54,110 bases of DNA from Oscillospiraceae bacterium (GTDB lineage Bacteria > Bacillota > Clostridia > UMGS1883): positions 1 through 54,110 of the forward strand of contig SVJI01000001.1 of NCBI GenBank assembly GCA_015069065.1, read 5' to 3'. A program made the translations under genes and the position numbers. The notes under the pieces were generated by a model. The model had not been told where the DNA came from. It saw only the letters and a list, made by a program, of their open reading frames with translations, and did no database searches. How positions within the stretch are numbered: position 1 is the first letter of the stretch; the number at the start of each line of letters is the position of its first letter. Shown piece by piece: positions 6,374-20,302 of this stretch.

Positions 6374-6377
6374 CTGA

Positions 6378-9300
6378 TTACTCCCCCTTTTCTTCCAAAT
6401 TTACACGGGATAACAAATATGTTTTTTCTGACGAGAATCTGCCGTCCTCTGAAACCACCTTAATATTAATCTTATCTGTTCCCTCTATATTTACAGTTGT
6501 GCAGTTTTGTGTTTCTTGTCCGTTGATATAAATTTTTGCATAGTCGCTCGCTGTTATATTACAGTCAATGGTTTTTGCCCCATCATCAATATTAATAACA
6601 GGATTTTCAGCATCAAAATCTGTTACGATGTATGAACGCTTGCCATTTGAAACTCCAACACGAGTAAGCTCGCAATGAGATGAGAGGTAATCCTCCTGCT
6701 CATATTCAAAAATGTCTACCTCGTATCCGTCTAAATCAATCTTGAACCATCCGCTTGCGTCGGCAGTATACTCTGTACCTGTATACATTCCCTTAATTTT
6801 TTTAACTCCATCAAGATAAACTCTGCACGACCTTGCACTGTTTTCATTATTTATCGTGAACAGATACGATTTGCCCTCGTGGCGTCTTGACATATGGTTA
6901 AGCCATTCCCCGCCGCCCTTTACCTCATAATAAGGTGCGGGAAGTCTTGAAAGAATTACAGGCTCCATATATTCAATCTCTCTGAATACGAGGAATTGTC
7001 CTTCCCAGATTTCCTCAGGTGTCTGCTCGTTCCACGGACGTATATACGGGTCTGTCAGTGCATAGCTATCAAGCATTGTCGTACCTGCACAAACAGCTTG
7101 CCAAGCCATATTACGATACTCCTGCTCCGTAGGTCCACGAAGGTCCCCCCTCTCTTTAAACCAGAAAGCCTGAAGTATTGTATTTATTGGCTTATTCGGA
7201 CAAATCGTTTTAACTGTTTCCACTCGCTTTGTAACCTCAGACAATTTCATATCGTCCTTACCGGTATCTACATACGGGTCGCATCCGATAATGTCAATCG
7301 TTTTTGCATATACACCAGGTCTACCCTCAAACAAGGTGTCTGCTGCACCAAGTGTGGGATGGTTAATGTCTGCTGCTGACATTATATCGTTCTGCCATCT
7401 TAACTCCTCCCCATAACGCACAGGGTTTTGTTCGTCCCAGTTATAATAACCAAATAATATGGGGTCGTCTTTATAATTTTCACAGAACAGCTCTATCAGC
7501 TTTCGGATATCAGTTTGTTTTTCTACAACATCAGGTACAATACCTGAATACATATTACTGTAGGCAAAGCCTGCCATTCCCAATATCCCCTGCAAATTCA
7601 AATCACTCATTCTTTTTTCAAGTGCATGTACTCTGGGATTCTGATATTGCAGGTAAAACGTAGTTCCTATTGATGTTACATCAAGAAAGTCCGTTCCCTC
7701 AAGTGCATCAAGTGCTTTTTCATACGTAAAGTCACCTGAAGCCCAATAATACGCCTTAAGGGGAAATGAGGGCTTCCCGTCTATTACAATACGGTTATAT
7801 TCGTCGATATAAAAGTCAGGTCTATAATCCTCAGCTCTTTTTCTTAACGTCCATTCCTGTTTTTGCAGCTGCTCGCCACTTTCTTTGGACGTCAGCGTAG
7901 ACACAAGATAGTAATCCCCCTCCGTCGGCAAAATGTTTGACGAAAAGCTTACTTCTATTACATCTGTGATATTTTCGTGTTTGCTTTCTGCGTAAACCTT
8001 TCCGTCTGCATCTTCAATGATGCTGCTGAAAATAAAATCATCTACGTTATAATAGCCGTTATATGTATTCATATATGCACGCAAATTAATATCACTTATT
8101 CCGTCACCATAAATAAGCCCTTTATAATTTGGTGTTATAAGCACAGTATCCATTGGGTCAAAAATTACCTTTGTCAGCTTAAAATCATCAAAATATGCAA
8201 CTGTGCCTGCCGCTGCATCCTTTCTCATATAACCGCCAAAACGCAAGGTATAGAACGGCTCTTCGCCATCAAGACTGTTTGCAACCTCGGGCACCATCAG
8301 GAGACATGTTTTTTCAAACCATTCATCACTTTGTACAGATGCGGCATTTTTACCTGAATCTGATGCATCAAGCCATTTTCCGTTGCTGTCATATACCTCC
8401 ATAAACAGACGCTCTGTGGCATCCATTGCAGGATTCTCTGTCTTTACCTTACAGGTTGCAACATACCAGTCCCCTGGCTTTGCATTGTTATCGTGAATAT
8501 AAAGTTGCAACTGCGAACGAGCATCTGCACTTTGTTCAACCTTAAGGCATGCAGAGCCGTCAACACCGCCATTTTCTTCTATTGACCATGTTCCGGGGCA
8601 CCATCCCTCTTCAAAATCTCCATATGTGCCGTCGTTAAACTCACAGGTACCTATTTCCATTTTGGGATAGTTATCTACACTGAACGGTGGGGGCATCTGC
8701 TCTGTCAATCTGTCGTTTACAACAGTTCTGTCAATGTTGTACCATTGCTCTACATCCCATTTTTTATCTGCTTGTGCAAGCACGCCCTGTAGCATCACGC
8801 AAACCTCTGCACGTGTTGCCTCTTTTTGTGGATTGAATGCTTCATTTTTCTTTGCCTTGAGCACACCTCTTTTTAAAAGAGCCTCAACCGCTTCTTTCGC
8901 ATAGTCCGAAACATCACTCATATCAGAGTAGGGCGTATATTCCCCTTCTTCGCTGTTTATCGGTTTCTTAATATCAGATAATCTGTATACCGCCAGTGCA
9001 CAGTCCTGCTTTGTAACATTTGTTCCGACACCGAACTGATTTTCAGAAACACCTTTAAAGAGCCCTGCCTCTTTTGTTGCTTCAACATATTGTTCATACC
9101 AACTGCCCGAAACAACGTCGGAAAAGCTGCCCGTATTTTCTCCCTTTTCTACGCCTAATCCAAGTGCAAGCACCTTTGCAAATTCTTCTCTTTTAATCTT
9201 ATCTTCAGGTGCAAACACTGTTGCACTTTTACCATTTATAATTCCGTCATTATACAATATACTGATTTCATTGTACGCATAGTGTGATTCAGGCACATCA

Positions 9301-9389
9301 TTAAATGGATTGTATTTTTCCGCTTTTATTGATGTAGAATACGAAAAGCTTATAATAATACCTAAGGCTAAGCTAAGTATTTTCTTCAT
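6378..9389 (-). CDS. SLH-anchored putative glycoside hydrolase (3 SLH, CBM4/9-like, TIM-barrel-like, Ig-like C-terminus)
   Basis: Signal peptide MKKILSLALGIIISFSYSTSIKA. N-terminal SLH repeats (FNDVPESHYAYNEISILYNDGIINGK; FSDVVSGSWYEQYVEATKEAGLFKG; YSDMSDVSDYAKEAVEALLKRGVLK). CBM4/9-like block (GDFEEGWCPGTWSIEENGGVDGSACLKVEQS...). Central ~400 aa has alternating beta/alpha character and YNWDEQNP, which resembles the clan GH-A acid/base strand. The GH family could not be assigned by eye. Confidence 0.55.
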   Translation of the reverse strand: MKKILSLALGIIISFSYSTSIKAEKYNPFNDVPESHYAYNEISILYNDGIINGKSATVFAPEDKIKREEFAKVLALGLGVEKGENTGSFSDVVSGSWYEQYVEATKEAGLFKGVSENQFGVGTNVTKQDCALAVYRLSDIKKPINSEEGEYTPYSDMSDVSDYAKEAVEALLKRGVLKAKKNEAFNPQKEATRAEVCVMLQGVLAQADKKWDVEQWYNIDRTVVNDRLTEQMPPPFSVDNYPKMEIGTCEFNDGTYGDFEEGWCPGTWSIEENGGVDGSACLKVEQSADARSQLQLYIHDNNAKPGDWYVATCKVKTENPAMDATERLFMEVYDSNGKWLDASDSGKNAASVQSDEWFEKTCLLMVPEVANSLDGEEPFYTLRFGGYMRKDAAAGTVAYFDDFKLTKVIFDPMDTVLITPNYKGLIYGDGISDINLRAYMNTYNGYYNVDDFIFSSIIEDADGKVYAESKHENITDVIEVSFSSNILPTEGDYYLVSTLTSKESGEQLQKQEWTLRKRAEDYRPDFYIDEYNRIVIDGKPSFPLKAYYWASGDFTYEKALDALEGTDFLDVTSIGTTFYLQYQNPRVHALEKRMSDLNLQGILGMAGFAYSNMYSGIVPDVVEKQTDIRKLIELFCENYKDDPILFGYYNWDEQNPVRYGEELRWQNDIMSAADINHPTLGAADTLFEGRPGVYAKTIDIIGCDPYVDTGKDDMKLSEVTKRVETVKTICPNKPINTILQAFWFKERGDLRGPTEQEYRNMAWQAVCAGTTMLDSYALTDPYIRPWNEQTPEEIWEGQFLVFREIEYMEPVILSRLPAPYYEVKGGGEWLNHMSRRHEGKSYLFTINNENSARSCRVYLDGVKKIKGMYTGTEYTADASGWFKIDLDGYEVDIFEYEQEDYLSSHCELTRVGVSNGKRSYIVTDFDAENPVINIDDGAKTIDCNITASDYAKIYINGQETQNCTTVNIEGTDKINIKVVSEDGRFSSEKTYLLSRVNLEEKGE

Positions 9390-9412
9390 TTAACTACCTT
9401 ACCTTTCGTCTA

Positions 9413-10885
9413 TTAGTTCTTGTTTATTTTTTTCCATTCATCGTACTGACGCTGAAGCTCCTTAAACACCTTATCGCTTCCTGCCGCCTTAAACTTCTTA
9501 ATTGCTTTCGGAAGCTCTGTTTCAGGGTCTGAAACGCCTGTTGTAAGTGCAGGCATATATTCCTTATACACGTTGTTCATTGCTGCAATTTCTGCTGAAA
9601 GCTCAGAAATGTCAAATACAAATCCCAGTGCGGGAGATATAAATGATTCCTCGTTAAACTTTTTATAAGCGTCCCAAATATCTGTAGGAGTATTAGGAGG
9701 AATATTCAGAAGATAACGGTTACCCTGTGCCGCTGCGGTAGCGTAATAGTCATTTTCGGTAAAGTTCATTACACCCTCGGGGTATTTTACAGTAGTTCCT
9801 TCGTTTTCAAGGGTGTAGTGCTTTCCTTCAATACCGTAAACATACAGATTAAGTAAGTATTTGTCCGTATAGAGCATATTTAAGAATTCCATAGTTTTTT
9901 CTGGATTTTTTGATGTTCTTGAAATTGCCTGAAGTGCTGATTGAACATAATTTGTTGTTACAATAGAGTCGCCTACATTAACAAAGTATCTCTGTTTATC
10001 GGCAGTACGTGCAGCATTATACTGCTGTTCCTGATATGGAATCATCTCTGTACAGTTCATGAAGAAGGTAATATCATTACTTGTAGTTGCCGTATCTGCA
10101 TCAGGTCTTAAATATCCTTTTTCATACCAACGATGCATCATATCAAAGAATTCTTTTGCTGTATCTGTTTCTATCCAGTTCACAACTTTAGTATAATCTC
10201 CATCCTTTTCAAAAGCACCCAACACACTGTCGCTGATATACTCAAAGGGCAGAAGTCTTTTTACATAGTCATTACCTCTGATATCTGTAGGATAAACTGT
10301 AGGCTCTTTTTCTTTAATATCAGCTAAAATACTCTCCATGTCAGCAAGTGATTTTATATTGCTTAAATCTATATTATATTTATCGGTAAGCTGTTTGTTA
10401 CATCCGATTACATACTGTGTTCCCCAGTCCTTTATAGTAGGAACACCGTATATTTCTCCTTTGTATTTTACAGCATTCCACATTTCTTCAGGCATAAGCT
10501 CCAATATGTCCTTACCATGTGTTTCAAGCAACCTATCAATCGGCAAATATGCTCCGTTTTCTGCATTCTGTCCGTAGCTGTTTGCAGCTACCGAACACAT
10601 ATCAAATACTTCACCCGATGCTAAAAGCAGCTTTGTTTTTTCAGCATAATCAGCCGCACTGAAGTGAATAATTTTTACTGTCGCACCAATTTTTTCCTTG
10701 AGATACTCATTGATTTCTTTGTTTACCAAATCCTTGTCCTTGGTGTTGTCACCCTCGTTATACCAGACTATCTCGTATGTGTCTGTGCTTGTCTGTTCGC
10801 TCTTACCAAAGGAACAACCTGTTAATACAACACACGCTGTCAGTACCAAAGCTGTAATTCTGCTAACCATTTTTTTTGTTTTCAT
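9413..10885 (-). CDS. ABC transporter extracellular solute-binding lipoprotein (LplA-like, family 1)
   Basis: The ORF-track start at 10891 is TTG, only 2 nt after the SD. ATG at 10885 lies 9 nt after AAGGAG. Lipobox LTGC in MKTKKMVSRITALVLTACVVLTGCSF. Size (~490 aa) and position next to two sugar permeases fit. Confidence 0.8.
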   Translation of the reverse strand: MKTKKMVSRITALVLTACVVLTGCSFGKSEQTSTDTYEIVWYNEGDNTKDKDLVNKEINEYLKEKIGATVKIIHFSAADYAEKTKLLLASGEVFDMCSVAANSYGQNAENGAYLPIDRLLETHGKDILELMPEEMWNAVKYKGEIYGVPTIKDWGTQYVIGCNKQLTDKYNIDLSNIKSLADMESILADIKEKEPTVYPTDIRGNDYVKRLLPFEYISDSVLGAFEKDGDYTKVVNWIETDTAKEFFDMMHRWYEKGYLRPDADTATTSNDITFFMNCTEMIPYQEQQYNAARTADKQRYFVNVGDSIVTTNYVQSALQAISRTSKNPEKTMEFLNMLYTDKYLLNLYVYGIEGKHYTLENEGTTVKYPEGVMNFTENDYYATAAAQGNRYLLNIPPNTPTDIWDAYKKFNEESFISPALGFVFDISELSAEIAAMNNVYKEYMPALTTGVSDPETELPKAIKKFKAAGSDKVFKELQRQYDEWKKINKN

Positions 10886-10905
10886 TTTCAAACACTCCTT
10901 TTTAA

Positions 10906-11883
10906 TTATTCTTTAACTGATCCGATTGTTATTCCATTAACAAAATACTTTTGAAAAAATGGATAAGCTACCATTATCGGAATTGTTACCAATACAACCA
11001 GTGCCATCTTTACACTTTCTTCAGGCAGACTGTCATTAAGGTTTTGAATTTCAACACCGCTCATTCCCGTGCTTGCCGCATTGGAAAGATATTGAATTTC
11101 ATTTTCTATTCTTTTAAGCAATAACTGGATAGGAACCATTTTGTCATTTTCGACAATATACAAAAATGCCTGATACCAGTCGTTCCAATATGCAACTGCC
11201 AAAAACAGTGCTATTGTAGCAATAACAGGAACACACATCGGCAGTATTATCTTATAAAAGCTGAGAAAATCTCCTGCTCCATCAATTTTAGCCGCTTCTT
11301 CAATGCTGTCGGGAATTGACGTTCTCATATATGTGCGAAGTATCAAAATATATGTTCCGTTTATACACAGCGGAAGGATAAGAGCTAAAGCACTGTCACG
11401 CAAGTGAAGAATATTTGAATACATAATATATGTAGGAACGAGTCCGCCGTTAAAAAGCATTGTAAAATATATAAATAAAATGAACTGTCTTTTCCACGGA
11501 AAGCTCTTTCGTGTAATTGCATAAGCAAACAACGTCATAATTGAAAGACCAAACAGTGTTCCTATTATCGTTACACATATTGAAACACCATATGACTGCC
11601 ATATCTGACCGCCTGTCTTAAACAAGTATTCATAAGCTGAAAGCGACCATTTTGATGGCCAAAGCTTATATCCCTCAAGCATTAATGTTTCATTTTCCGT
11701 AAAGGATACTGCTATTGTCAAAAGCAGCGGTATCAGCATCGAAACAGAAAGCAGCGTAGTAATAAGAGTTAATATAAACTTCGTAACTGCCGAAAGGTCC
11801 TCTCTTTTAATATCTTTTTCAATAACCTCTTTATTCTTTTTAATTTTCACTTTATCATACCTCCAACCTTTATGCCTCTGCAT
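10906..11883 (-). CDS. carbohydrate ABC transporter permease (LplC/AraQ-like)
   Basis: Multi-TM protein with EAA loop EEAAKIDGAGDFLSFYKIILP. The start is ambiguous. I chose ATG at 11883, 1 nt after the upstream TAA, over the ORF-track start at 11928, which would overlap the upstream gene by 44 nt. No strong SD precedes either candidate. Confidence 0.75.
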   Translation of the reverse strand: MQRHKGWRYDKVKIKKNKEVIEKDIKREDLSAVTKFILTLITTLLSVSMLIPLLLTIAVSFTENETLMLEGYKLWPSKWSLSAYEYLFKTGGQIWQSYGVSICVTIIGTLFGLSIMTLFAYAITRKSFPWKRQFILFIYFTMLFNGGLVPTYIMYSNILHLRDSALALILPLCINGTYILILRTYMRTSIPDSIEEAAKIDGAGDFLSFYKIILPMCVPVIATIALFLAVAYWNDWYQAFLYIVENDKMVPIQLLLKRIENEIQYLSNAASTGMSGVEIQNLNDSLPEESVKMALVVLVTIPIMVAYPFFQKYFVNGITIGSVKE

Positions 11884-11884
11884 A

Positions 11885-12799
11885 TTAAAACATTGCATCA
11901 TCAGGAGAAACTTTTCTGATAATACCATTAGAAATCAAAACGCATGCAAAGGCTACAGTTGACTGATACAAGCCTGTTGCTGCTGTCATTCCCAGGTTTC
12001 CGCCCGACATTAAGCCATTGTAAACATACGTATCTATTGTGCTGGTTACGGGATAAAGTGTGCCGGAATTCCTTGGAACAAGGTAGAACAATCCGAAATC
12101 AGAATGGAAAATCGATCCAATGTTGAGTATAAACATAACAATAGCAATAGACTTAAGCATCGGTATTGTTATGTAACGTACCTGCTGAAACCATGTCGCC
12201 CCGTCGATTTTTGCCGCCTCATAATACTCAAGGCTGATTCCTCGGATACTGCTGTAGTAAATAATACTGCTATAGCCGATTCCTTTCCATAAATAAGCTA
12301 TTGGTATTATAAACGGCCAAAATTTAGGCTCGTTGTACCAGTTTACTGCCTCCCCGCCAAAGAACGTAACAACTTTATTTAAAAGACCCTTGTCAAAGCT
12401 TAAAATTGCAAATACAAAGTAGCTTCCAACAACCCATGAAATAAAATGGGGAAACAATACCAATGTCTGATTGGCACGGTTCAGCGTTGATTTTCCCAGC
12501 AAATCATAAATAATAGCCAGCGCCATTGCAAAAAACATTCCAAGTGAAATAAAGGCTACATTGTACAATATTGTATTTCTTGTAATAAGCCATGCATCTG
12601 AGGTTTTAAATAAAAACTCGAAATTTTTAAAGCCTACCCAGTCACTTCCGAATATGCCGGTGCTGAATTTAAAATTCTGAAAAGACATTACAACACCAAA
12701 CATCGGGCAATATCTGAGCAAAATAGTAAGAACCACTACAGGCAATGTCATTAACAGCAAAACTCTGTTTTTATAAACGTCATTTACAAATTTTCTCAT
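11885..12799 (-). CDS. carbohydrate ABC transporter permease (LplB/MalF-like)
   Basis: ATG at 12799 with GGAG upstream. Six predicted TM segments. EAA loop YEAAKIDGATWFQQVRYITIP. Confidence 0.8.
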   Translation of the reverse strand: MRKFVNDVYKNRVLLLMTLPVVVLTILLRYCPMFGVVMSFQNFKFSTGIFGSDWVGFKNFEFLFKTSDAWLITRNTILYNVAFISLGMFFAMALAIIYDLLGKSTLNRANQTLVLFPHFISWVVGSYFVFAILSFDKGLLNKVVTFFGGEAVNWYNEPKFWPFIIPIAYLWKGIGYSSIIYYSSIRGISLEYYEAAKIDGATWFQQVRYITIPMLKSIAIVMFILNIGSIFHSDFGLFYLVPRNSGTLYPVTSTIDTYVYNGLMSGGNLGMTAATGLYQSTVAFACVLISNGIIRKVSPDDAMF

Positions 12800-12832
12800 T
12801 TTAACACTCCATTACTGATTTTTTCTGAAAAC

Positions 12833-14599
12833 TTATATTTTTACATTTGTATCTAAAAGTATTTTTGCACTAATTCCTCCCTTTTCATTTTTTTCATATT
12901 CTAATCCGCACCCCTCGTTGTAGGTGTGTTTAATACGCATTGCTACATTTCTTATTCCAACATGGTATTTTTGCCTGTTTTCGCCGCTTAATATCTTGTT
13001 AAGCGCATCTACTTCACTGCCTTTTCCATCATCTTCTATAGAGATTTGTATGTATTTTCCTTTTCTTTCTACACTAATTTTAATTGAAATACCCTCGCTC
13101 TCGCTCATCCCGTGTATTATGGAATTTTCAACCAGTGGCTGCAATATACATTTCGGTACTTCTATATTGCAAACATCATCAGGTACATCAATATTTAAAT
13201 CAATATTTCCCGCATATCTGTTTCGCTGAAGCATTACGTATTTTCTTACGCATTCAAGCTCCTCGGAAAATTTTGCCGTGATTTTTCCGTCTTTAATACT
13301 GTAGGATAAAATCTGAGAAAGCAAATCAGCCATTTCTCCGATTTCATCTTCGCCTTTTTCTATTGCAAGCCATGATATCGAATCAAGAACGTTATAGAGA
13401 AAATGTGGATTAATCTGTGCCTGCAGCATCTGTATTTCCATTTGCTGCGTTTTTTTGTTCTGCTCATTTTCTCGCTGCTTTGCGGTCACTATCTTATCCA
13501 GCATAATGTTAAAGGAACGATACAGCTCGCCTACTTCATCACGGTTATCTGACTTTACTCTTATTGCATTAAGATTACTATAATCTATTTTTCCCATCGA
13601 ATCTGCAAGTCTTTTTATAGGTCTCGTAAGATAATAGGAGAGAATTATCAAAATTAAAAATGTAGCAATTATAGCTACAAAAATTGCACCTATAACCACA
13701 GTTCTTATATCACTTGCCTTTAGGTATATGCTGTCTAATGGTACAAAAGATACAAAGGAAACACCTATATCCGTTCTTACCATATTAATTACATATTCAT
13801 CGTCCTCAAATGTGTGGGCGACATTAAATCCGATGAGGTTTTCATCCGCAATTTTTTTTACGTAATTATTATCCAATCCATTTTCATTTTTAGCAATTAT
13901 CTGATTGTTACTATCCAGAACCGCCACCATCATATTATCCGAAAGAGAAAGTATCTGCATTTTTTGCAGCAGTTCCAAACAGTCAATTCCTATAATTCCT
14001 ACCCCCATCATTGAGTCATAATTTGTATAAACGGGAATCTGAGCTTTAATTGCTTTTGCAAAATAGATATATTCAGGATTTTCTTCTAATCTGAAAGTAT
14101 AAAACGGACCGTCATTAAAATAAACTTCGTTATACCAGTTCTCATTTTTTATGTGGTTTAAGCTATACATTCCAAATTCAGTATTTTCAAAGGTATTTGA
14201 TTTTACCTTACCAAGTTCCTTTGCCATAGCACATTCATCATTAACATAGAAATGTAGCATATATTCATTTAGCATTGAACCTACCGATAGTTCAAAAAAG
14301 CTTCTGTATTCATTGATAAAATTTGTCTTGTTATTTGAAGCCTCAGTTGACGAATCGGGAACTTTATTTAATGATTTAATCATGAACTCATTGGAGCTGA
14401 TTGCTGCAAAGCTTCGTCCCATTCCTTTAGCAATACTATCGAAACTTTGTTTGTTTTCAAGCATACTCGCCTTTATGTCATTTTTAATCTGAGATACTAT
14501 AATCCTCTCAAATCTTCCATACATAAAGCTACTTAAACAGATTACTACCACCAAAAAGGACGCAAACATCGAGATTAACACTTTTAACCGTATACTCAT
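12833..14599 (-). CDS. sensor histidine kinase, YesM-like
   Basis: Two TM segments flank a ~270-aa outside domain. HAMP region (LTRPIKRLADSM). His-kinase block QINPHFLYNVLDSI. ATPase boxes LQPLVENSIIHG and IEDDGKG. ATGA overlap with the response-regulator stop. Confidence 0.85.
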   Translation of the reverse strand: MSIRLKVLISMFASFLVVVICLSSFMYGRFERIIVSQIKNDIKASMLENKQSFDSIAKGMGRSFAAISSNEFMIKSLNKVPDSSTEASNNKTNFINEYRSFFELSVGSMLNEYMLHFYVNDECAMAKELGKVKSNTFENTEFGMYSLNHIKNENWYNEVYFNDGPFYTFRLEENPEYIYFAKAIKAQIPVYTNYDSMMGVGIIGIDCLELLQKMQILSLSDNMMVAVLDSNNQIIAKNENGLDNNYVKKIADENLIGFNVAHTFEDDEYVINMVRTDIGVSFVSFVPLDSIYLKASDIRTVVIGAIFVAIIATFLILIILSYYLTRPIKRLADSMGKIDYSNLNAIRVKSDNRDEVGELYRSFNIMLDKIVTAKQRENEQNKKTQQMEIQMLQAQINPHFLYNVLDSISWLAIEKGEDEIGEMADLLSQILSYSIKDGKITAKFSEELECVRKYVMLQRNRYAGNIDLNIDVPDDVCNIEVPKCILQPLVENSIIHGMSESEGISIKISVERKGKYIQISIEDDGKGSEVDALNKILSGENRQKYHVGIRNVAMRIKHTYNEGCGLEYEKNEKGGISAKILLDTNVKI

Positions 14600-15651
14600 T
14601 GCTTGACGCCCCCTTTTCTGTGTTGGCGGCTGTATTCCGTAGGCGACATATTCATAACATTTTTAAAAACTTTAGAAAAATAACGAAAATCCTCATATCC
14701 AACTAAAGAAGCAATATATGTAATTGTTAGATCTGTTTCCTTTATTAGTTGCGTTGCTTTCTTAATTTTCTTTCTGGTTATATAATCAACTACAGTACAG
14801 TTTTCATTCTTTTTGAAAAGTGTACCAAGATATGCTGTAGAAATATTAAAGCGATTGGCTACATTGATTGTACTTAATCCTTGTTCTGTGTAATGTTTTT
14901 CAATATAATCTTTAATCTTTTCGATTGTAAGGTTCTCTTTCCTTGACTGCACTGAAATTCCATATCGCATAATATTTTCGTATGTTTCAATAAAAAACGT
15001 TTTATATTCCGCTTCTGAAGTACATTTTCTGAATTCAGAAAGAAGACTCTCTTCAAATGAACGTTCTGGATTTAATTCACGTGCAAATTCAGCCATTATT
15101 TTAAACAGAAACGAATAGTATTCACGTGCCAAAGCATTGTTTATCCTGTTGAAATATTTATCAAGGGTTAAAATGCTATCAATTACTTTCATATCCCGTT
15201 CTACAAAAGCCTTTTTCACAGTTTTCCCGAAATCACTATTATAAATAAGCGATGTCAATTTGCGTTTTTGCTCTTTTTCTTCATTGACTTCAATCATAAT
15301 TTCTGAAAGCTGCTTTAACTTTTCTTTGTTGATAGGCTTTAAAATATACCTTCTGACTCCATATTCTAGAGCCTCCTGCAAAAGCTCAAACTCCTGATAT
15401 GCAGAAAGCAAAATAATTACTGTATCGGGACAATTATTACTTACATATTTACTTAATGACAGACCATCCATCAGTGGCATTTTTACATCCGAAATAATAA
15501 CATCCGCTTCGTGCTGGCTAAGAAATTCCATTACCTCTTTCCCGTTCTTACACACAGCAACCAGTCTTGCTCTAAGCTCTTCCCATTCTATGACTTTTTG
15601 CAATCCGTTTCTTACATATACATCGTCATCAACAATAACAACATCAATCAT
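14596..15651 (-). CDS. two-component response regulator with AraC-type HTH output, YesN-like
   Basis: Start moved to ATG 15651 (MIDVVIVDDD...), preceded by AAGGATGGTGA. The ORF-track N-terminal extension (to 15720) has no SD. Receiver motifs DVIISDVKMPLMDG and ILKP. C-terminal AraC HTH (INVANRFNISTAYLGTLFKK...IASLVGYEDFRYFSKVFKNVMNMSPTEY). Confidence 0.85.
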   Translation of the reverse strand: MIDVVIVDDDVYVRNGLQKVIEWEELRARLVAVCKNGKEVMEFLSQHEADVIISDVKMPLMDGLSLSKYVSNNCPDTVIILLSAYQEFELLQEALEYGVRRYILKPINKEKLKQLSEIMIEVNEEKEQKRKLTSLIYNSDFGKTVKKAFVERDMKVIDSILTLDKYFNRINNALAREYYSFLFKIMAEFARELNPERSFEESLLSEFRKCTSEAEYKTFFIETYENIMRYGISVQSRKENLTIEKIKDYIEKHYTEQGLSTINVANRFNISTAYLGTLFKKNENCTVVDYITRKKIKKATQLIKETDLTITYIASLVGYEDFRYFSKVFKNVMNMSPTEYSRQHRKGGVKQ

Positions 15652-15834
15652 ACTTTCACCATCCTTTTTTATAGACACACCTGTCAATTTTATTCTATCA
15701 CGATAAATAGCAAAGAACAAATGACAAATAATGCCTATATTAATTTGTGAAAATATTGCAAAATTAGGATTTTGTTAAAAACATATAATTTTTATTTTCA
15801 ATTTAATTATAATTTAAGTCATTTCTTCTAACAA

Positions 15835-15873
15835 TCGTAAATTTTTTATTAACACTCGTAATATTTTTATTAA
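15835..15873. promoter_or_regulatory. imperfect 18-bp direct repeat at 21-bp period upstream of the regulator operon
   Basis: TCGTAAATTTTTTATTAA (15835-15852) and TCGTAATATTTTTATTAA (15856-15873) match at 16 of 18 positions. The 21-bp phasing is the geometry used by AraC-type dimers. The region is very AT-rich, so this is weak. Confidence 0.25.
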
Positions 15874-16029
15874 AAACAAATTTGTGCTTAAAGATAATAT
15901 TGCAAGCAAATATTAACCATTCAAAGTTTCCTCTTCAGGACACGATGTCCACAAGTTTATAAAAATCTCAGTATTTACAAAATCAGAAGTGTTATAAACT
16001 GCTATACAAAGCCAAATACAGACGTATTC

Positions 16030-16062
16030 AAGAAGAAATTCCCACGGTGGGAATTTCTTCTT
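16030..16062 (+). terminator. perfect 16-bp hairpin at the left edge of module A (insulator or terminator)
   Basis: AAGAAGAAATTCCCAC-g-GTGGGAATTTCTTCTT followed by GTTTAT. The U-rich 3' arm makes it terminator-like. An imperfect counterpart lies in copy B at about 51077-51106, downstream of the AraC gene. Confidence 0.5.
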
Positions 16063-16139
16063 GTTTATGTGTAATACGCTATTTTTTTATAGAAGAATAA
16101 AATTTTTTTAAAAACTTGCAGAAAAAACAGCTCCACCCA

Positions 16140-16168
16140 TTGCATCGCTTTTGTAAATAGTATATACT
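16140..16168 (+). promoter_or_regulatory. promoter-like site P1 (copy A)
   Basis: TTGCAT, 17 nt, TATACT. It is conserved in copy B as TTGCAA, 17 nt, TATACT. Confidence 0.45.
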
Positions 16169-16177
16169 TGTCTCGTA

Positions 16178-16209
16178 AAAATGGTAAGCAGTTAAAATGG
16201 TAAGCAGTT
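16178..16209 (+). repeat. perfect tandem 16-mer x2 (AAAATGGTAAGCAGTT)
   Basis: Units at 16178-16193 and 16194-16209, about 10 nt downstream of P1. The same sequence occurs in copy B (51224-51255). Confidence 0.9.
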
Positions 16210-16358
16210 AAGCGTATTTTTTGATTTATTTATTCCTACTTTAATGGGATAACTCTGTCCAAAAATCGCTTTTTCATGAATTGAGGTTAATAAACAAAGC
16301 AAAGTGTAAATGCATTTTGACATATATATTGATATTTTGTAAACTTTTGTCAACCTGC

Positions 16359-16387
16359 TTTACATCAGATATTTGGTATGATATTAT
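16359..16387 (+). promoter_or_regulatory. promoter P2 of the candidate ncRNA (copy A)
   Basis: TTTACA (16359-16364), 17-nt spacer ending in TGa, then TATTAT (16382-16387), which gives an extended -10. A perfect TATAAT also overlaps at 16387-16392. The same arrangement is in copy B. Confidence 0.6.
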
Positions 16388-16395
16388 ATAATCAA

Positions 16396-16703
16396 TAATT
16401 AATTTATGCGTGGGGTTCCCGAGGCTTTTCTGTAAAGTCTTAGCATACTAGATGTCGTGATTGTAATTAAAGCCAACGGTATAGCTATGCCCATTTTTAG
16501 GGGATTTACTGTGAACTTTATTAAGTATGATTGTATTTTACACTTTATTTTGAGAATTATTTTTTGAGGTTAATGAAAGATTATGAGTCTATTTAAGTTT
16601 TAACTTAAATGCTCCGAAAAGTCAGCTGTGCTGACAAAGTGAATAAAGAGGTTAAAAGAATGTAGAATTAAATCCAAAATGGATTAGTCTGCATTCTTTT
16701 TTT
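16396..16703 (+). ncRNA. candidate structured ncRNA, ~310 nt, unknown class (copy A)
   Basis: Bounded by promoter P2 and an intrinsic terminator: AGAATGTAGA 16657-16666 pairs with TCTGCATTCT 16688-16697, followed by a T-run to 16703. The 5' ~150 nt and 3' ~90 nt are conserved with copy B around a divergent core. One hairpin is replaced by a different hairpin at the same place in copy B. No SD and no conserved ORF. The 5' end is approximate. Confidence 0.6.
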
Positions 16704-16761
16704 GTCTGAAATACAAGGAGAATTGAAGTCCTACAGGCACTTATTTGTACTGTCTTACTGA

Positions 16762-17038
16762 TAGTCATCGGATAGCCGGACTACATATGGTTTAAAAAGG
16801 GAAATTTCGTATAATACTGCAGAAAATTCTGCAAATATACTTAAGTATTATTCTTGAATTTTCTTTGTCTTATAACAAAATTTCCTCTTTTGAAACTCTC
16901 CGACCTTATATTTAGAAAAATTTTATATAATTTCAATACGGAGGACGAAGATAGGCTGACGCCTTTCAAGGACGACAAGTTGAAAGGATAAAAATTTTTC
17001 AAATATAAGGCATATGCAGTTCGACTATCCGATGACTA
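16762..17038. mobile_element. 277-bp MITE-like insertion with ~28-bp imperfect terminal inverted repeats
   Basis: Present in module A and absent from module B (B reads ...GTACTGTCTTACAAATTAGTGTACGGAC...). Left end is TAGTCATCGGATAGCCGGACTACATATG. The RC of the right end is TAGTCATCGGATAGTCGAACTGCATATG. A second internal inverted repeat is CCTTATATTTAGAAAAATTT / AAATTTTTCAAATATAAGG. No ORF. TA lies at both junctions. Confidence 0.65.
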
Positions 17039-17132
17039 AGTGTACGGACAAAGGATAATGAATGAATCAAACGATTTTAAAACGCAAAGTTTTTAACAGG
17101 TTTGTATGCACCTGAAAAGATTAGGCAGAATC

Positions 17133-17185
17133 TTGACGCAGTAGCGGCTGCGGAATATTTTACATATGTCACCGCTATGACATAT
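17133..17185 (+). promoter_or_regulatory. promoter-like site P3 plus 8-bp inverted repeat (candidate operator) upstream of xis-int (copy A)
   Basis: TTGACG (17133-17138), 17 nt, TATTTT (17156-17161). Immediately after it comes ATATGTCA-ccgcta-TGACATAT (17164-17185). Both elements occur with the same sequence in copy B. Confidence 0.4.
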
Positions 17186-17411
17186 TTCAGCATCTGCAAT
17201 ATCATTGGAACGCACCTGAGTTTAGCAGGTATGATGCTACCGCAGAGTTTATACTCACCCATATAGGGTTGCGGGAATATTACTAACCGGGCAATATGCC
17301 AATAGATAATACAAATCATACTAAATGGAGACAGAGATAATAAACACACCTCAATATACCGATATAAATGAAAATATAATTAATTCATATCGGGAAACAG
17401 AGAGGTAACGG

Positions 17412-17570
17412 GTGCTTTCCGTAAAGCAGCTTTGTGAAATACTTGGCATAGGTAAAAATTCTGCATACAAGCTGTTACAAAGCGGAGAGATTAAATGTAT
17501 AAAGATTGGTAAGGTATACAAGATACCGAAAAAATATTTAAAAGAATATATCACCAAATTTTCTAAATAG
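17412..17570 (+). CDS. xis: excisionase-family HTH DNA-binding protein (52 aa, GTG start)
   Basis: Below the ORF-track length cutoff. GTG at 17412 follows AGAGAGG. Translation (M)LSVKQLCEILGIGKNSAYKLLQSGEIKCIKIGKVYKIPKKYLKEYITKFSK matches the 53115..53297 protein at about 38 of the 44 aligned positions (by eye). The pattern is typical of MerR/Xis-type helix-turn-helix_17 proteins next to integrases. Confidence 0.75.
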   Translation: MLSVKQLCEILGIGKNSAYKLLQSGEIKCIKIGKVYKIPKKYLKEYITKFSK

Positions 17571-17581
17571 TAGTTTACTTT

Positions 17582-17625
17582 GTAGCCCTGCGGTGATAAA
17601 ATAAACATATCATCGTGCAGGCTAC
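17582..17625 (+). other. stem-loop between xis and int (copy A)
   Basis: GTAGCC(C)TGC.G ... CGTGCAGGCTAC forms a ~11-bp stem with a ~20-nt loop and no U-tract. Copy B has a hairpin of unrelated sequence at the same place (53310-53352). Confidence 0.5.
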
Positions 17626-17639
17626 GGAAAGGAGTTAAA

Positions 17640-18761
17640 ATGTCTGGTAGCCTACAAATAAAAAACGGCAAATATTATGCCGTTATCAGTTATAAAAATG
17701 AACAAGGAAAACGCAAGCAAAAATGGATAAATACAGGATTTGAAGTAAAAGGCAACAAGCGAAAAGCCGAAGACTTTTTGAAAAAACTTCTTGTGCAAGA
17801 AAACGATTTTTCAGAAGTAAAGCCTGATATATTATTTTGCGACTATATACAAAATTGGCTTGAAAAACGAAAAAACGAGGTTGAAGATTCCACTTGGCAA
17901 GGATATTCCAATGTAGTAAAAAATCATATATATCCTTATTTTTCTGAAAAGAAAATAGAATTAGCTAAAATATCTCATAAGGATATAGAAAAGTATTATC
18001 ACCACAAGCTTGAACAAGGTCTATCCTCCGGCACAATTAAAAAGCATCATGCCAATATACGAAAATGTCTTCAACAGGCTTTAATGGAAGATTTGATTCC
18101 TGTAAATTATGCAGACAGAGTTTCGCTTCCTAAAATTGAACAATACAATGCGTCTTTCTTTGATTCAGAAGAAATTAAAGTTCTGTTAGAAAAAGCTAAA
18201 GGAAATGAAATCGAACCTATTATCATTCTTTGTGTGTATTATGGTTTACGGCGTTCTGAAGTTTTAGGATTAAAATGGGATGCCATTAGCTTTAAAAATA
18301 ACACTATCAGGATATGCAACACTGTCACCTATATGTATGAACTTTGCGAAAAAAAGCGCACAAAGAATACAAGCAGCTACAGAACTCTCCCCTTGATTAC
18401 TGTTGTGAGTGAATACTTACTGTCACTAAAAGGGCAACAGAAAGAAAATCGTAAGCTTTTCGGAAACTGTTATCAGGAAAACGACTATATATGCGTAAAA
18501 ATTGATGGCAGTAGAATTTCTCCACATGCTGCATCACGCAAGTTCAGAAATTTTCTGCAAAAAAATGGTTTACCGCATATACGGCTTCACGATTTAAGGC
18601 ACAGTTGTGCATCACTCTTAATTGCACAGGGTGTAGACATAAAAGTTATACAGGAATGGTTAGGTCATTCTTCCATTGCAACAACGGGAAACATTTATGG
18701 ACATCTGCAATTTAAGCAAAAGATAGAAACAGGAATTGTGCTCGAAAATCTGCTTGCTTGA
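17640..18761 (+). CDS. int: tyrosine integrase with N-terminal arm-binding (AP2-like) domain
   Basis: ATG at 17640 after GGAAAGGAG. N-terminus SLQIKNGKYYAVISYKNEQGKRKQKWINTGF. Catalytic set: R in YYGLRRSEVLGL, HDLRHSCAS, and WLGHSSIATTGNIYGH. Confidence 0.9.
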   Translation: MSGSLQIKNGKYYAVISYKNEQGKRKQKWINTGFEVKGNKRKAEDFLKKLLVQENDFSEVKPDILFCDYIQNWLEKRKNEVEDSTWQGYSNVVKNHIYPYFSEKKIELAKISHKDIEKYYHHKLEQGLSSGTIKKHHANIRKCLQQALMEDLIPVNYADRVSLPKIEQYNASFFDSEEIKVLLEKAKGNEIEPIIILCVYYGLRRSEVLGLKWDAISFKNNTIRICNTVTYMYELCEKKRTKNTSSYRTLPLITVVSEYLLSLKGQQKENRKLFGNCYQENDYICVKIDGSRISPHAASRKFRNFLQKNGLPHIRLHDLRHSCASLLIAQGVDIKVIQEWLGHSSIATTGNIYGHLQFKQKIETGIVLENLLA

Positions 18762-18767
18762 AATTTT

Positions 18768-18798
18768 GTTAGAAAAGTGTTAGAAAAACGTTAGAAAA
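18768..18798 (+). repeat. three GTTAGAAAA 9-mers phased at 11 bp, directly after the int stop
   Basis: GTTAGAAAA at 18768-18776, 18779-18787 and 18790-18798. Helical phasing suggests a protein-binding array, such as arm-type or accessory-factor sites at an element end. Confidence 0.5.
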
Positions 18799-18820
18799 AA
18801 GCATCAGGATTTAAACAGGC

Positions 18821-18866
18821 AAAAAAATAGAGAATGGCATAACCTACGATGGTTAAGCCATTCTCT
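18821..18866 (-). terminator. intrinsic terminator downstream of the tRNA fragment
   Basis: On the minus strand, AGAGAATGGC...GCCATTCTCT (18857-18866 pairs with 18829-18838, plus inner TAACC/GGTTA pairs) is followed by T7 (complement of A7 at 18821-18827). Confidence 0.7.
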
Positions 18867-18867
18867 C

Positions 18868-18923
18868 TGGTGCTCGAGACCGGGATCGAACCGGTACGTC
18901 TTTATGGGACACGGGATTTTAAG
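18868..18923 (-). pseudogene. 3' fragment of tRNA-Leu(UAA), anticodon loop to CCA; candidate att remnant
   Basis: The RC reads CTTAAAA-TCCCG-TGTCCCATAAAGACGT-ACCGG-TTCGATC-CCGGT-CTCGAGC-A-CCA. These are the anticodon loop with UAA, the 3' anticodon stem, a long variable arm, a canonical T arm, the acceptor 3' strand, discriminator A and CCA. The sequence 5' of the loop (..AAGCTTT) cannot pair with TCCCG, and no GCTCGAG acceptor 5' strand or D arm follows. Confidence 0.75.
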
Positions 18924-19062
18924 AAAGCTTACCCGTTGATTACACTACATTATCTAAAATTATACAAAGCCTTACAAACCCTTTTGTTAAGCGGTTTATA
19001 AGGCTTTCTGTCTGTAAAATCCTTTTAAATCCAAAGAGTCTCAAAAACGAATTTTTTTCGAT

Positions 19063-19084
19063 TTTGGTGGAAATTTGGTGGAAA
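19063..19084 (+). repeat. perfect tandem 11-mer x2 (TTTGGTGGAAA) abutting a promoter
   Basis: Units at 19063-19073 and 19074-19084, 3 nt upstream of the -35 hexamer of the HipA-like gene promoter. Confidence 0.8.
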
Positions 19085-19087
19085 TGA

Positions 19088-19116
19088 TTGCACGCAGATT
19101 TTATTTATGTTATACT
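19088..19116 (+). promoter_or_regulatory. promoter of the HipA-like gene
   Basis: TTGCAC (19088-19093), 17 nt, TATACT (19111-19116), 44 nt upstream of the ATG. Confidence 0.5.
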
Positions 19117-19159
19117 TAATACAAATATATGGTAGCATATTTTAGAGAGGAGGATAAAA

Positions 19160-20302
19160 ATGATTTCTTCATATGAACTAAAACTATATGATGAAACTCT
19201 CTTAACTTTTAATATGGCTGAAAAAGGTTTGGAAGGTCTTGTTGCTGAAATTGATTATATAGATAAAGATAAGAAAAATATCTTCCCTTTGGATTTAGAG
19301 GTATCAAATGCAGGAATTATTAAATGGCTTAGAAAACGTGTTATTCCAAAAAACCGAAGATTCGTAGATGAAATATTAAAAACGCTGAACTTATCTCAAA
19401 ACGATACAAAAGGTATAATCGACGTATGTAAAGGCTTATCACTTAACGATAGTTATTGGGTTGTTCCAAAAGGGTTTGAAGGTAAATTTTCGGAATATAA
19501 TCTATATGAAAACAGATTTTCTGAAATTCTGTCTTTAGTTGCATACACAGGCGTAGGCAGTTCAAACAAAGCATTTTCAACATCTCCTGAACTAACTACT
19601 AATGGAATGCTTCCTAAAGCATGGCGCTTTGTAGAAAACGATGGTATATATCTTTATAAAGGCGGAACCGACGGAGCTGTTAATTCAGGTAAAGAGCCTT
19701 ACAGCGAGTATTATGCAAGTCAGATTGCCGCAGCAATGGGACTTAACGCAGTAAAGTACGAATTAGAAAACTGGAAAGGAATTCTTGCCTCTAAATGCAA
19801 ATTATTTACCGATATTGATACTTCTTTTATTCCAGTTGGAAGAATTGTTACGGACGGAGGAATTGCTGCTTGTCTGGAATATTATAAGAGCTTAGGAAAT
19901 GAATTTTACGAGCAGTTAAAAAGTATGCTTGTATTTGATGCCGTAATTTACAACGAGGACCGTCATTTTGGTAATTTTGGTATTTTAAGAAATAATCACA
20001 CTGGCGAAATTCTGGCTCCGGCACCTATATTCGATAATGGTCTGTCGCTATTTAATTTTGCAATGGATGAAGATTTTAAGGATTTAGAATCTTATGCTAA
20101 AACACGTACTACCCCATACGGAGTATCTTTTGAAACAATTTGCACAGAAGCAATCGGCAAAAAACAGATTTCTGAATTACGTAAATTAATTGGATTTAAA
20201 TTCAACCGTCACAAAACAATGAACCTATCAGAAGAAAGATTGTGTTCTATTGAAAAATTGCTGCAAACGAGGATATCTCAGCTTATATCTTTAAGCAAAT
20301 AA
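19160..20302 (+). CDS. HipA-like kinase-domain protein (no HipB-type partner seen)
   Basis: ATG after GAGAGGAGGA. The C-terminal half contains VIYNEDRHFGNFGILRN and PIFDNGLSLF, which match the HipA_C catalytic-loop and Mg-binding patterns (D-x-H-x-x-N ... D-N/F-G). The only plus-strand gene between the tRNA fragment and locus 2. Confidence 0.6.
   Translation: MISSYELKLYDETLLTFNMAEKGLEGLVAEIDYIDKDKKNIFPLDLEVSNAGIIKWLRKRVIPKNRRFVDEILKTLNLSQNDTKGIIDVCKGLSLNDSYWVVPKGFEGKFSEYNLYENRFSEILSLVAYTGVGSSNKAFSTSPELTTNGMLPKAWRFVENDGIYLYKGGTDGAVNSGKEPYSEYYASQIAAAMGLNAVKYELENWKGILASKCKLFTDIDTSFIPVGRIVTDGGIAACLEYYKSLGNEFYEQLKSMLVFDAVIYNEDRHFGNFGILRNNHTGEILAPAPIFDNGLSLFNFAMDEDFKDLESYAKTRTTPYGVSFETICTEAIGKKQISELRKLIGFKFNRHKTMNLSEERLCSIEKLLQTRISQLISLSK

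Follow-up and report, generated by a model that had tools for sequence, protein, structure and literature searches.

The xerDC RNA motif lies upstream of genes for Xer-like tyrosine recombinases in Clostridia. It was described in a survey of 224 motifs (PMC5737381) and is held in Rfam as RF03062, a family of 126 nt labelled 'Cis-reg'. In Tn916, an insulating terminator near the end of the element and canT, a cis-acting antiterminator RNA of 340-452 nt, have been reported (PMC11658703, Wirachman & Grossman 2024). The timing of excision of integrative elements is poorly understood outside a few models, and RNA-based control, as with canT of Tn916, has only just been recognised. Here we analysed a stretch of 54,110 nucleotides (the window) of contig SVJI01000001.1 from an Oscillospiraceae bacterium (GenBank assembly GCA_015069065.1), in which a block of DNA stands twice ahead of genes for site-specific recombination: rec, for an Xer-like tyrosine recombinase (Rec), xis, for an excisionase (Xis), and int, for a tyrosine integrase (Int). 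Copy A is window 15987-17414 minus a miniature inverted-repeat transposable element (MITE), and copy B is window 51030-52214; L001 and similar names denote the comparison loci.

Judged by comparison of sequences, it is fairly probable that the block is a transcribed non-coding control region ahead of the rec-xis-int genes of an integrative mobile element, where it would regulate their conditional expression. The alignments contain RNA structures, which we term RNA1 and RNA2, on the plus strand and in a fixed position before Rec, accompanied by promoters and terminators predicted from consensus matches; these leader RNAs probably decide when the recombinases are made. RNA2, like the canT region of Tn916, occupies a large non-coding stretch directly upstream of xis(-int) or recombinase genes, and both elements have a terminator near the element end, here predicted from sequence. 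Some relatives of our element carry Tn916-type Xis or sigma-70-r4/HTH genes after Rec. Tn916 differs in that the conserved terminators here lie upstream of RNA2, not downstream, and the minimal elements are without conjugation genes. In the Tn916-type copy of pCF10 (L038), the only long non-coding stretch of the region is that between orf8 and xis, which is presumably where canT lies. A blastn comparison with this region gave nothing between orf8 and xis, and Rfam, including EAR, gave no match that would point to homology with a processive antitermination RNA.

The preliminary description of the window had reported a colinear block duplicated some 35 kb apart. Comparison of 15000-19500 with 50000-54110 by blastn bore this out, with three colinear matches on the same strand:

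15944-16758 against 50989-51814, first match, 84.4% identical over 840 columns (E 0)
17039-17414 against 51820-52214, second match, 88.9% identical (E 2e-134)
17418-17545 against 53151-53278, third match, in xis, 85.9% identical

Global alignment with separate identities for each segment revealed a mosaic along the length of the two copies:

outer left edge, 49%
left hairpin region, 81%
region of the tandem 16-mer, 87%
RNA1, 86.5%
spacer, 69%
terminator T2, 98%
RNA2 (remainder of the leader), 88%, or 93% ungapped
xis, 79% in nucleotides and 79% in amino acids (48 aa)
spacer between xis and int, 46%
int, 51% in nucleotides and 42% in amino acids (236 aa)

The similarity of Xis and the drop to about 40% in Int, both estimated earlier by eye, were therefore right. 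The start proposed for the block, 15956, lies slightly too far out; the true start is near 15987/51030, the outermost 45-90 nt or so being only about 50% alike. The 277-bp insertion reported in copy A is present and is a MITE with perfect 14-nt terminal inverted repeats. Two explanations that could have dissolved the finding failed. The match is real and not patchy low-complexity AT-rich similarity, and the block is not the remnant of a protein gene: 12 of the 14 indels between A and B are not multiples of 3, no open reading frame (ORF) within the block is common to both copies, and none of its ORFs has a Pfam match at E<=0.1. The block is non-coding, and conservation in it tracks base pairing, not codons.

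The larger part of the block corresponds to RNA2, which runs from just behind terminator T2 to the genes:

51758-52234, plus strand, RNA2 of copy B, intact, ~477 nt, up to the Rec start codon
16707-17414, plus strand, RNA2 of copy A including the MITE, with a 13-nt deletion and an A>G change in loop e
16747-16758, copy A, RNA2 hairpin b, loop CUGUCU
17117-17134, copy A, RNA2 hairpin e
17137-17152, copy A, RNA2 hairpin H1
17164-17185, copy A, RNA2 hairpin H2
17215-17229, copy A, RNA2 block CCUGAGUUUAGCAGG
17327-17334, copy A, RNA2 block GGAGACAG
17359-17393, copy A, a further RNA2 hairpin
17401-17414, copy A, AGAGGTAACGGGTG, resembling a Shine-Dalgarno (SD) sequence

The comparative evidence describes RNA2 as a long structured 5' leader with two predicted kissing-loop contacts. 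The 14 loci compared could all be aligned over it, from T2 as far as the SD, and show invariant blocks (CUGUC, GACAG, UUUCAGCAUCGGC, CCUGAGUUUAGCAGG, UUGCGGGAAUAUUACUAACCGRGCAAUAUGC, GGAGACAG and GGAAA..AGAGGUAAC) between covarying stems; GGAGACAG, UACUAACCG and AGUUUAG are invariant and single-stranded. The stems vary freely and the loops and junctions are fixed. The 6-nt loop of H1 is complementary to the loop of H2 in every locus, in five different pairs (UAGCGG/CCGCUA, CGACUA/UAGUCG, CGGCGA/UCGCCG, CGACGA/UCGUCG and UUGCAG/CUGCAA), and loop b is likewise complementary to loop e (CUGUCU/AGACAG, CUGUCA/UGACAG and, wholly different in L028, CUGCUC/GAGCAG). When pairs were counted in an 11-sequence alignment for H1, H2, P2b and the kissing helix, 98.8% of cells were paired and 12 of the 23 pairs showed double changes, with five of the six pairs of the kissing helix compensatory; none of 500 shuffles matched this pairing, and slid controls gave 16-48%. 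G-U pairs occur in the plus sense only, so the plus strand is the folded one. Hairpins b and e were extracted from each sequence separately and stems P2 and P3 were drawn by inspection, MAFFT having put these out of register. The c/d region, also drawn by eye, forms a pseudoknot ACGCA...UGCGU that encloses UCGGGUUU, paired with the downstream AAAUCCGA, and it covaries in the L001 group. The minimum free energy of RNA2 in copy B was -112.2 kcal/mol (z-score -3.54), and none of 100 shuffles was as stable. We also considered loops b/e and H1/H2 as the overlap regions of paired recombination core sites, which would likewise yield complementary loops, and rejected this: Rec is conserved, yet the flanking arms are not the same in the two partners or from locus to locus.

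Among Rfam families, xerDC alone touches the block; it matched RNA2 at 17165-17288 of copy A (plus strand; RF03062, 27.9 bits, E 0.051, model positions 1-126) and at the homologous position of L028 (4888-5006; 42.7 bits, E 0.0015, model positions 1-126). Both scores are below the gathering score of 72.5, and for this reason we did not file RNA2 as a member. The two weak matches are full-length and the helices that they imply coincide with the covariation-supported H2 and P2b, and by eye only with the closing stems P2 and P3. xerDC and RNA2 appear to have in the same order a hairpin, a multi-stem domain with loop GAGUUYAGC, a second multi-stem domain and a tail UACUNACC, and the tail UACUAACC matches the xerDC consensus UACUgACC. 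In copy B and in all Rec loci that we fetched, which are from Clostridia, RNA2 ends at the SD of the Xer-like Rec, in keeping with the position of xerDC. RNA2 is, however, about four times longer than the 126-nt model, with an additional 5' domain (hairpins b, c/d, e and H1) and a 3' domain that reaches the SD; through its loop, the first 'xerDC' hairpin forms the predicted kissing contact with a hairpin further upstream, and T2, RNA1 and a short transcript R0 lie upstream of RNA2, unlike in the xerDC model. On this reading RNA2 would be a distant, AT-rich and much-extended relative of xerDC; seen the other way round, xerDC is perhaps the part of a larger RNA that is conserved best.

RNA1 is shorter and lies upstream of T2:

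16396-16527, plus strand, RNA1 of copy A, ~130 nt, covariance model score 137.3 bits
51443-51574, plus strand, RNA1 of copy B, covariance model score 145.7 bits, z-score -3.05 against shuffles

It is laid out as a three-way junction followed by a terminator: a 5-bp P1 (UAUGC/GCAUA), a mini-hairpin GGG..CCC, a freely variable hairpin P2, an invariant single-stranded tail CUAGAUGUCGUGAUUGUAAUUAAA and a nested terminator hairpin P3/P4 with a U tract. The U-tract terminator and an extended -10 promoter were present in all loci. RNAalifold found compensatory changes at 11 of 28 pairs and supported P2 and P3. A covariance model built from 16 sequences retrieved 26 copies at E<1e-6, in which 91.8% of cells were paired and 21 of the 28 pairs had changed on both sides; a P1 pair goes from U-A to C-G in the tandem copies. 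No shuffle out of 500 matched this pairing, and slid controls dropped to 33-45%. Rfam has no family for RNA1, even at E<=10, and RNA1 is apparently an undescribed structured RNA.

In addition to its place in the block, RNA1 was found without RNA2 ahead of xis-int in L021, ahead of HTH-Rep-FtsK modules in L007, L010, L011 and L014, and ahead of a YqaJ module in L020; L015 carries RNA1 without the rest of the block. RNA1 thus has the anatomy of an attenuator, a conserved structured domain and then an intrinsic terminator, 5' of xis-int, Rec, HTH-Rep-FtsK and YqaJ operons. It shares with riboswitch and attenuator leaders a promoter, a junction with invariant unpaired nucleotides, covarying helices and an intrinsic terminator, and also the tandem form: in L010 and L011, two units stand in one transcript with one terminator. 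Two units per transcript, ahead of several operons, are the behaviour of a cis-regulatory leader and not of a trans-acting small RNA. RNA1 differs from riboswitches in that it has no Rfam match and in that the genes downstream are for mobile-element functions, not metabolism, so that no ligand can be guessed; unlike the usual attenuators, it is followed in the window by a second terminator and a further RNA of 480 nt. Tandem units, two or three, were seen at L010 830-1347, L011 3949-4315 and L022 4779-5161, and L001 1-69 holds a second, truncated RNA1 gene, at 3.7 kb upstream of the complete one, in which unrelated DNA takes over after the promoter and the initial ~20 nt. Exactly 22 nt of the invariant stretch of RNA1 recur at L002 3353-3374 and L008 1352-1373, at or near contig ends; these are contigs of a metagenome-assembled genome (MAG) labelled Gammaproteobacteria with no other similarity to the block, and the match may be chance or a mis-binned repeat.

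Three other roles for RNA1 were tried and set aside. As a trans-acting small RNA, its tail could be paired with RNA2 or with rec/xis mRNA (RNAduplex, about -13 kcal/mol), and the site differed in each locus, leaving no conserved target. The RNA1 gene is unlikely as a tRNA-like integration target, its copies being diverged and free of core duplication. An invertible promoter flipped by Rec was suggested by a 10-bp inverted repeat, AAAGTGTAAA/TTTACACTTT, that flanks RNA1 in A, B, L003 and L013 and is absent from L004 and the L001 group.

The following features lie to the left of RNA1, between RNA1 and RNA2 or, for one promoter-like pair, within RNA2:

16359-16387 and 51406-51434, plus strand, RNA1 promoter pair, extended -10 type (in copy A TTTACA, 17 nt, TG-TATTAT)
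16317-16345 and 51364-51392, promoter-like site pair, both copies
17133-17161 and 51926-51954, promoter-like site pair, overlapping an RNA hairpin and probably not a promoter
51186-51214, copy B, promoter-like site TTGCAA-17-TATACT, just upstream of the 16-mers
16183-16212, plus strand, copy A, tandem 16-mer, GGTAAGCAGTTAAAAT twice, predicted 5' end of the short transcript R0
51229-51258, plus strand, copy B, tandem 16-mer with a promoter-like site upstream
16654-16704, plus strand, T2 of copy A, nested hairpin followed by seven T, 98-100% identical to copy B
51706-51755, plus strand, T2 of copy B
16029-16063, plus strand, copy A, terminator-like left-end hairpin with T-rich tail, 16 pairs, 6 of them G-C
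51076-51106, plus strand, copy B, terminator-like left-end hairpin
15900-15986, plus strand, copy A, outer left edge, ~50% identical to B and specific to the IntA-type element
16183-16212, 16460-16472, 16657-16675 and 17403-17421, copy A, G(G/U)UAA motif
51229-51258, 51507-51519, 51709-51727 and 52203-52221, copy B, G(G/U)UAA motif

The position of the RNA1 promoter is kept in all loci. Because the site at 51186-51214 stands upstream of them, transcription in copy B would begin at the tandem 16-mers; L028 has three such modules of promoter and 16-mer in a row. T2 was recognisable in L004, L006, L013, L028, L029 and L032, and its conservation exceeds what a plain terminator needs. Both arms of the left-end hairpin are compensatorily altered in L013 (CAAAGAAAAATTCCC/GGGAATTTTTCTTTG), and the hairpin is a possible insulator against transcription that reads in from outside. 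The outer left edge of copy A, common to L012 from 15908 at 88.7%, with a different left flank in L012, is probably the arm on the side of the attachment (att) site. In one subgroup of loci (L001, L005, L009 and L015, with L007, L011 and L014), the -35 and -10 elements of the RNA1 promoter are separated by a perfect palindrome, CCACAATATGTTGTGG; it looks like a repressor operator, and the two copies of the window are without it. The tandem 16-mers, the RNA1 tail, the 5' strand of T2 and the 3' end of the leader all contain a short motif, G(G/U)UAA-N0-5-(G)UUAAA, and the 3' domain of RNA1, UUAAAG-CC-AACGGUAUAGCUAUGCCC, resembles the last stretch of the leader before the SD of Rec, UUAAAG-AG-AACGAUAUUGCUAUGUCU. 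The recurring motif and this near-repeat may mark a common binding factor or decoy sites.

Behind the leader the two copies carry different genes:

52235-53131, plus strand, copy B, Rec, 298-aa Xer-like tyrosine recombinase (Phage_integrase 1.2e-13 and SAM_4/SAM_1)
53115-53297, plus strand, copy B, xis (HTH_17, TIGR01764), overlapping the end of Rec
53380-54110, plus strand, copy B, IntB, tyrosine integrase cut by the window end, 42% identical to IntA
17412-17570, plus strand, copy A, xis, HTH_17 excisionase (PF12728 1.1e-14; TIGR01764), starting at the GTG of the leader
17640-18761, plus strand, copy A, IntA, tyrosine integrase (Phage_integrase 5e-29 and SAM_3)
16759-17038, copy A, MITE-like insertion of about 275-280 bp with a perfect 14-nt terminal inverted repeat, TAGTCATCGGATAG, at both ends

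Rec scored below the cut-offs for XerC, XerD, XerA and integron integrase, with weak matches to XerA, XerC and XerD, and no close solved structure was found for it; its functional start may be the downstream ATG at 52259. A protein collection held 2,223 homologues at E<=1e-3, the best 120 of them 60-91% identical. We fetched the contigs of seven, in Clostridia/Eubacteriales MAGs, and in all of them 0.9-1.5 kb upstream of Rec is gene-free. RNA2 stands directly 5' of Rec, ending in an SD, upstream of every Rec gene examined and whatever integrase follows. The genes downstream of Rec are of four kinds:

HTH_17 Xis with various tyrosine integrases
Tn916-type Xis with Int
a sigma-70-r4-like gene with HTH_17
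DUF6870 with a 560-aa serine recombinase

With leader and Rec constant and the module behind them varying, leader plus Rec is the conserved unit and the integrase module is what is exchanged. An exact 20-mer of the candidate RNA occurred at 15 places in a collection with one genome per species, nearly all of them in uncultured gut or rumen Clostridia and up to four per MAG, and a degenerate 23-mer was found on six metagenome contigs; chance matches to the pattern search numbered 0. Annotated plasmids and phages gave no match to the block (blastn, distant mode), and neither did IMG/VR when scanned with RNA1 and RNA2 patterns.

Copy A derives from the arrangement of copy B and is in decay, with Rec lost, the MITE in RNA2, the 13-nt deletion and the loop substitution. 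Rec has been deleted such that the AGAGGTAACGGGTG of the leader is fused to xis without its first ten codons. The repeats of the MITE lie within 51-nt arms that are 75% complementary, and the element splits the 3' strand of RNA2 hairpin b; it is absent from copy B, L004 and L013, and the window has no further copy. L001 underwent an independent internal deletion of Rec that left the first and last codons, and in L003 a related insertion of ~190 bp, with similar ends and middle, interrupts the leader at a different position. IntA is 78.6% identical to the Int of L004.

These results also bear on what the preliminary description had made of the block. Of its alternatives, selection on DNA sites or RNAs and exchange of modules among elements that keep different integrases, both have a counterpart: the compensatory changes in RNA1 and RNA2 demonstrate selection on RNA structure, and the same module of leader and Rec precedes diverse integrase modules. 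The three promoter-like sites that it listed are indeed shared, although the pair at 17133/51926, for the reason given above, should probably be struck from the list. Its shared SD and GTG (52201-52214 in copy B) are likewise real, and serve as the start of xis in copy A only, since in B the Rec gene lies between block and xis. What it had read as a string of separate sites is for the most part one long leader RNA, and the Rec gene of B and the decay of A had escaped it.

Rec resembles the recombinases of Xer/cer multimer resolution in being Xer-like and in having plasmid homologues that stand as sole recombinase, which would fit a resolvase-type role of Rec on the excised circle. Unlike the Xer/cer recombinases, Rec falls below every curated cut-off, shares an operon with Xis and integrase and is preceded by a giant leader RNA; no site of the dif or cer kind was identified for it. 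The plasmids concerned are small non-mobilizable plasmids of Bacillales, on which homologues with 33-48% identity are the sole recombinase. On two of them, of Brevibacillus and Bacillus cytotoxicus (L039 and L040), homologues with 46-48% identity have 0.85-1.5 kb of non-coding DNA upstream, with a long inverted repeat containing CTGTCTCTAT/ATAGAGACAG (L039 2282-2335 and L040 2256-2331) 125-200 bp before the gene. The heptamer GAGACAG of these repeats is also invariant in the leader (GGAGACAG). Leader homology was not detected in the non-coding DNA upstream of the plasmid homologues (nhmmer best E 0.11; no xerDC match).

The predicted promoters point inwards, and two predicted terminators lie between them and the recombinase genes, all on one strand. 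We infer that these RNAs regulate the genes behind them, and the mode that seems likeliest is as follows. The left hairpin, just inside the element edge, would shield the element against transcripts that enter from outside. RNA polymerase that starts at the strong promoters upstream would normally halt at the RNA1 terminator and at T2, and a signal sensed by RNA1 and/or a factor on the repeated GUAA..UUAAA sites would permit read-through. The RNA2 fold would then set the translation or stability of rec-xis-int, and excision and recombination would be triggered only under particular conditions. RNA1 itself would act as a riboswitch-type attenuator unit, single or tandem, ahead of several mobile-element operons.

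Several points weigh against this account. The promoters and terminators are predictions from matches to a consensus. Because RNA2 lies behind T2, it cannot itself prevent termination there in the same round; the only hairpins that it precedes are those within the operon, and RNA1 comes before P3 and T2. RNA2 is also far larger, and has more tertiary contacts, than the simple masking of an SD would require. Inspection of RNA1 revealed neither a conserved antiterminator pairing nor a switchable alternative fold, and no ligand or protein partner was identified for it. The alignment of its 26 copies was fitted to the model and is thus biased towards its structure, and the shuffle controls for the pairing overstate significance, the sequences coming from related elements. 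No xerDC match at E<=1 was obtained in copy B or in 8 other loci. Searched with the RNA2 profile (nhmmer --max), pCF10 had no match between orf8 and xis, the best one (E 8) lying in another part of the locus, and held-out RNA2 relatives score 1e-53 to 1e-132 with the same profile; homology of the leader to the canT-bearing region of Tn916 was therefore undetected, and the likeness is one of position and kind, not of descent. The place of RNA2 after T2, its excess of size and the lack of a ligand or alternative fold for RNA1 keep alive two other readings, of RNA2 as part of a ribonucleoprotein and of the fold as single-stranded DNA.

In the former, RNA2 would be a working partner of Rec, as scaffold, cofactor or guide of a ribonucleoprotein recombinase, which we regard as improbable but worth keeping in mind. 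The linkage of RNA2 to Rec is strict and the spacing fixed in all loci examined, with the downstream integrase swapped; RNA2 is very large, and its tertiary contacts and invariant single-stranded blocks go beyond typical leaders. Furthermore, Rec seems redundant beside a complete Xis and Int or serine-recombinase module, and the CTGTCTC/GAGACAG inverted repeat upstream of the Bacillales plasmid homologues contains the heptamer that is invariant in RNA2. The bridge RNA of IS110 and the omega RNA of IS200/605 are loosely similar in kind, as structured RNAs encoded beside, and strictly linked to, a recombination enzyme. Rec, however, is a tyrosine recombinase and not a DEDD or RuvC enzyme, and we know of no tyrosine recombinase that uses an RNA, which counts against this reading. 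The variable loops of RNA2, unlike guide or bridge RNAs, pair with each other, and neither complementarity to element ends or targets nor a conserved RNA-target duplex was found. RNA2 also ends in an SD like an ordinary 5' untranslated region, and it persists in loci without Rec (copy A, L001 and L009), though recent decay is apparent there. It would be a bold and rather unlikely extension that RNA2, with T2, is a new class of large tertiary-structured RNA that forms a ribonucleoprotein with Rec, or, alternatively or additionally, that RNA1 is a new riboswitch class with which mobile elements of gut Clostridia sense a cellular signal and so time their excision. We found no earlier description in the literature, in a search that was not exhaustive.

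That the fold acts instead as single-stranded DNA, either as a recombination substrate in the manner of integron attC or the attP hairpin of CTX phage on which XerCD acts, or as an origin or single-strand promoter laid bare when the excised element is transferred or replicates by rolling circle, strikes us as distinctly less probable still. Covariation cannot separate single-stranded DNA from RNA of the same strand, a caveat given by the authors of the motif survey themselves (PMC5737381; STAXI motif, PMC2864571); the neighbouring enzyme is Xer-like, and RNA1 also stands at the start of Rep-FtsK modules. Yet the fold lies between predicted promoters and U-tract terminators of the same orientation and leads into an SD and start codon, relaxase and Rep genes are absent from the minimal elements, and the plasmid, phage and IMG/VR collections gave no matches. 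In addition, Rec stays 65-90% identical and yet the hairpin arms change from one paired site to the other and from locus to locus, so they are not the protein-binding arms of a core site. A very improbable view, in our judgement, is that the copies are recent duplicates or products of gene conversion whose repeats and palindromes are duplex DNA sites, with no functional RNA. The identity of 81-93% between A and B is compatible with recent common descent; the tandem 16-mers, the GTTAGAAAA repeats and the promoter-spacer palindromes resemble protein-binding sites, and Xis, the would-be binder, is also conserved (79%). Covariation has largely refuted it: loci down to ~70-75% identity keep the helices by two-sided changes and retain two long-range loop complementarities, the G-U pairs are strand-specific, and the stems vary freely with loops and junctions fixed. 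As for a decayed protein-coding gene, ORFs of 53-90 aa can be drawn in the block, but the frame-shifting indels, the absence of an ORF conserved between A and B and the Pfam result make it next to impossible.

The right-end region of copy A (18762-19066) holds three GTTAGAAAA repeats and a tRNA-Leu-like fragment, and homology to L004 ends near 19066. The repeats are direct, lie right after the int stop (18768-18798) with an 11-bp period, number five in L004 and are candidate arm-type integrase binding sites. The fragment (18868-18925, minus strand), ~110 bp past the int stop, is like the 3' part of tRNA-Leu(UAA), with anticodon loop, long variable arm, T arm, acceptor strand and CCA; it is conserved in L004 with 140 bp beyond, it received no ARAGORN call, and it may be a relic of integration into a tRNA gene carried in the element end. 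In L001, L006, L009 and L033, the end of Int lies 100-220 bp from the 3' end of a tRNA gene, so that a recombination module of Int and Xis stands at an element end near a tRNA gene. Direct repeats of an att core were not found: the left edge of copy A against its right end, and tRNA 3' ends against left ends in L001, L006, L007, L009 and L014, gave 9-12-mers at chance level only. The mobility of the copies is therefore deduced solely from the differing flanks of homologous units. By homology to L012 from 15908 and to L004 as far as ~19066, with different flanks, the unit of copy A is ~3.1 kb, of which 2.9 kb remain when the MITE is left out; conservation of the unit in the L001 group begins only ~30-50 nt before the RNA1 promoter.

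Two glycan-utilisation loci, 364-15720 and 20432-50967, each lie directly upstream of a copy of the block. They encode SLH surface proteins, sugar ABC transporters, heparinase II/III-like proteins, GH88 and GH20, together with a rhamnosidase-like protein, GDSL esterases and AraC-type regulators including a two-component pair; AraC or ABC genes also stand beside the block in L013 and L029. Between the end of element A and the next locus is a 380-aa ORF (19160-20302) with a weak HipA_C-like match (E 1e-5, below the cut-off), and L022 has a HipA/HipB-type module upstream of the leader. Likely cargo upstream of the leader in other relatives comprises a restriction enzyme, HipA toxin-antitoxin genes, TnpV, Mrr and an MFS transporter. 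The glycan loci may be the cargo of large tandem islands, and copies A and B may be either elements of minimal size that carry no cargo and have a preferred site, or the modules that end two such islands.

Taken together, the block appears to be a control region composed of several RNA elements, and it goes with an accessory recombinase that is widespread in gut Clostridia. It offers comparative genomics a compact system in which a strong predicted promoter and two predicted terminators accompany a new junction RNA of 130 nt and a leader of 480 nt with two covarying kissing loops. It also links these parts to a recombinase family of the human and animal gut that is found with tyrosine integrases in some elements and with serine integrases in others. 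The orphan xerDC motif gains a context, its 126 nt being probably no more than the core of a far longer RNA. Large bacterial RNAs with conserved tertiary contacts are rare, and several have proved to have unexpected biochemistry. Should the glycan loci turn out to be cargo, the module would be of consequence for how the degradation of dietary and host glycans spreads in the gut.

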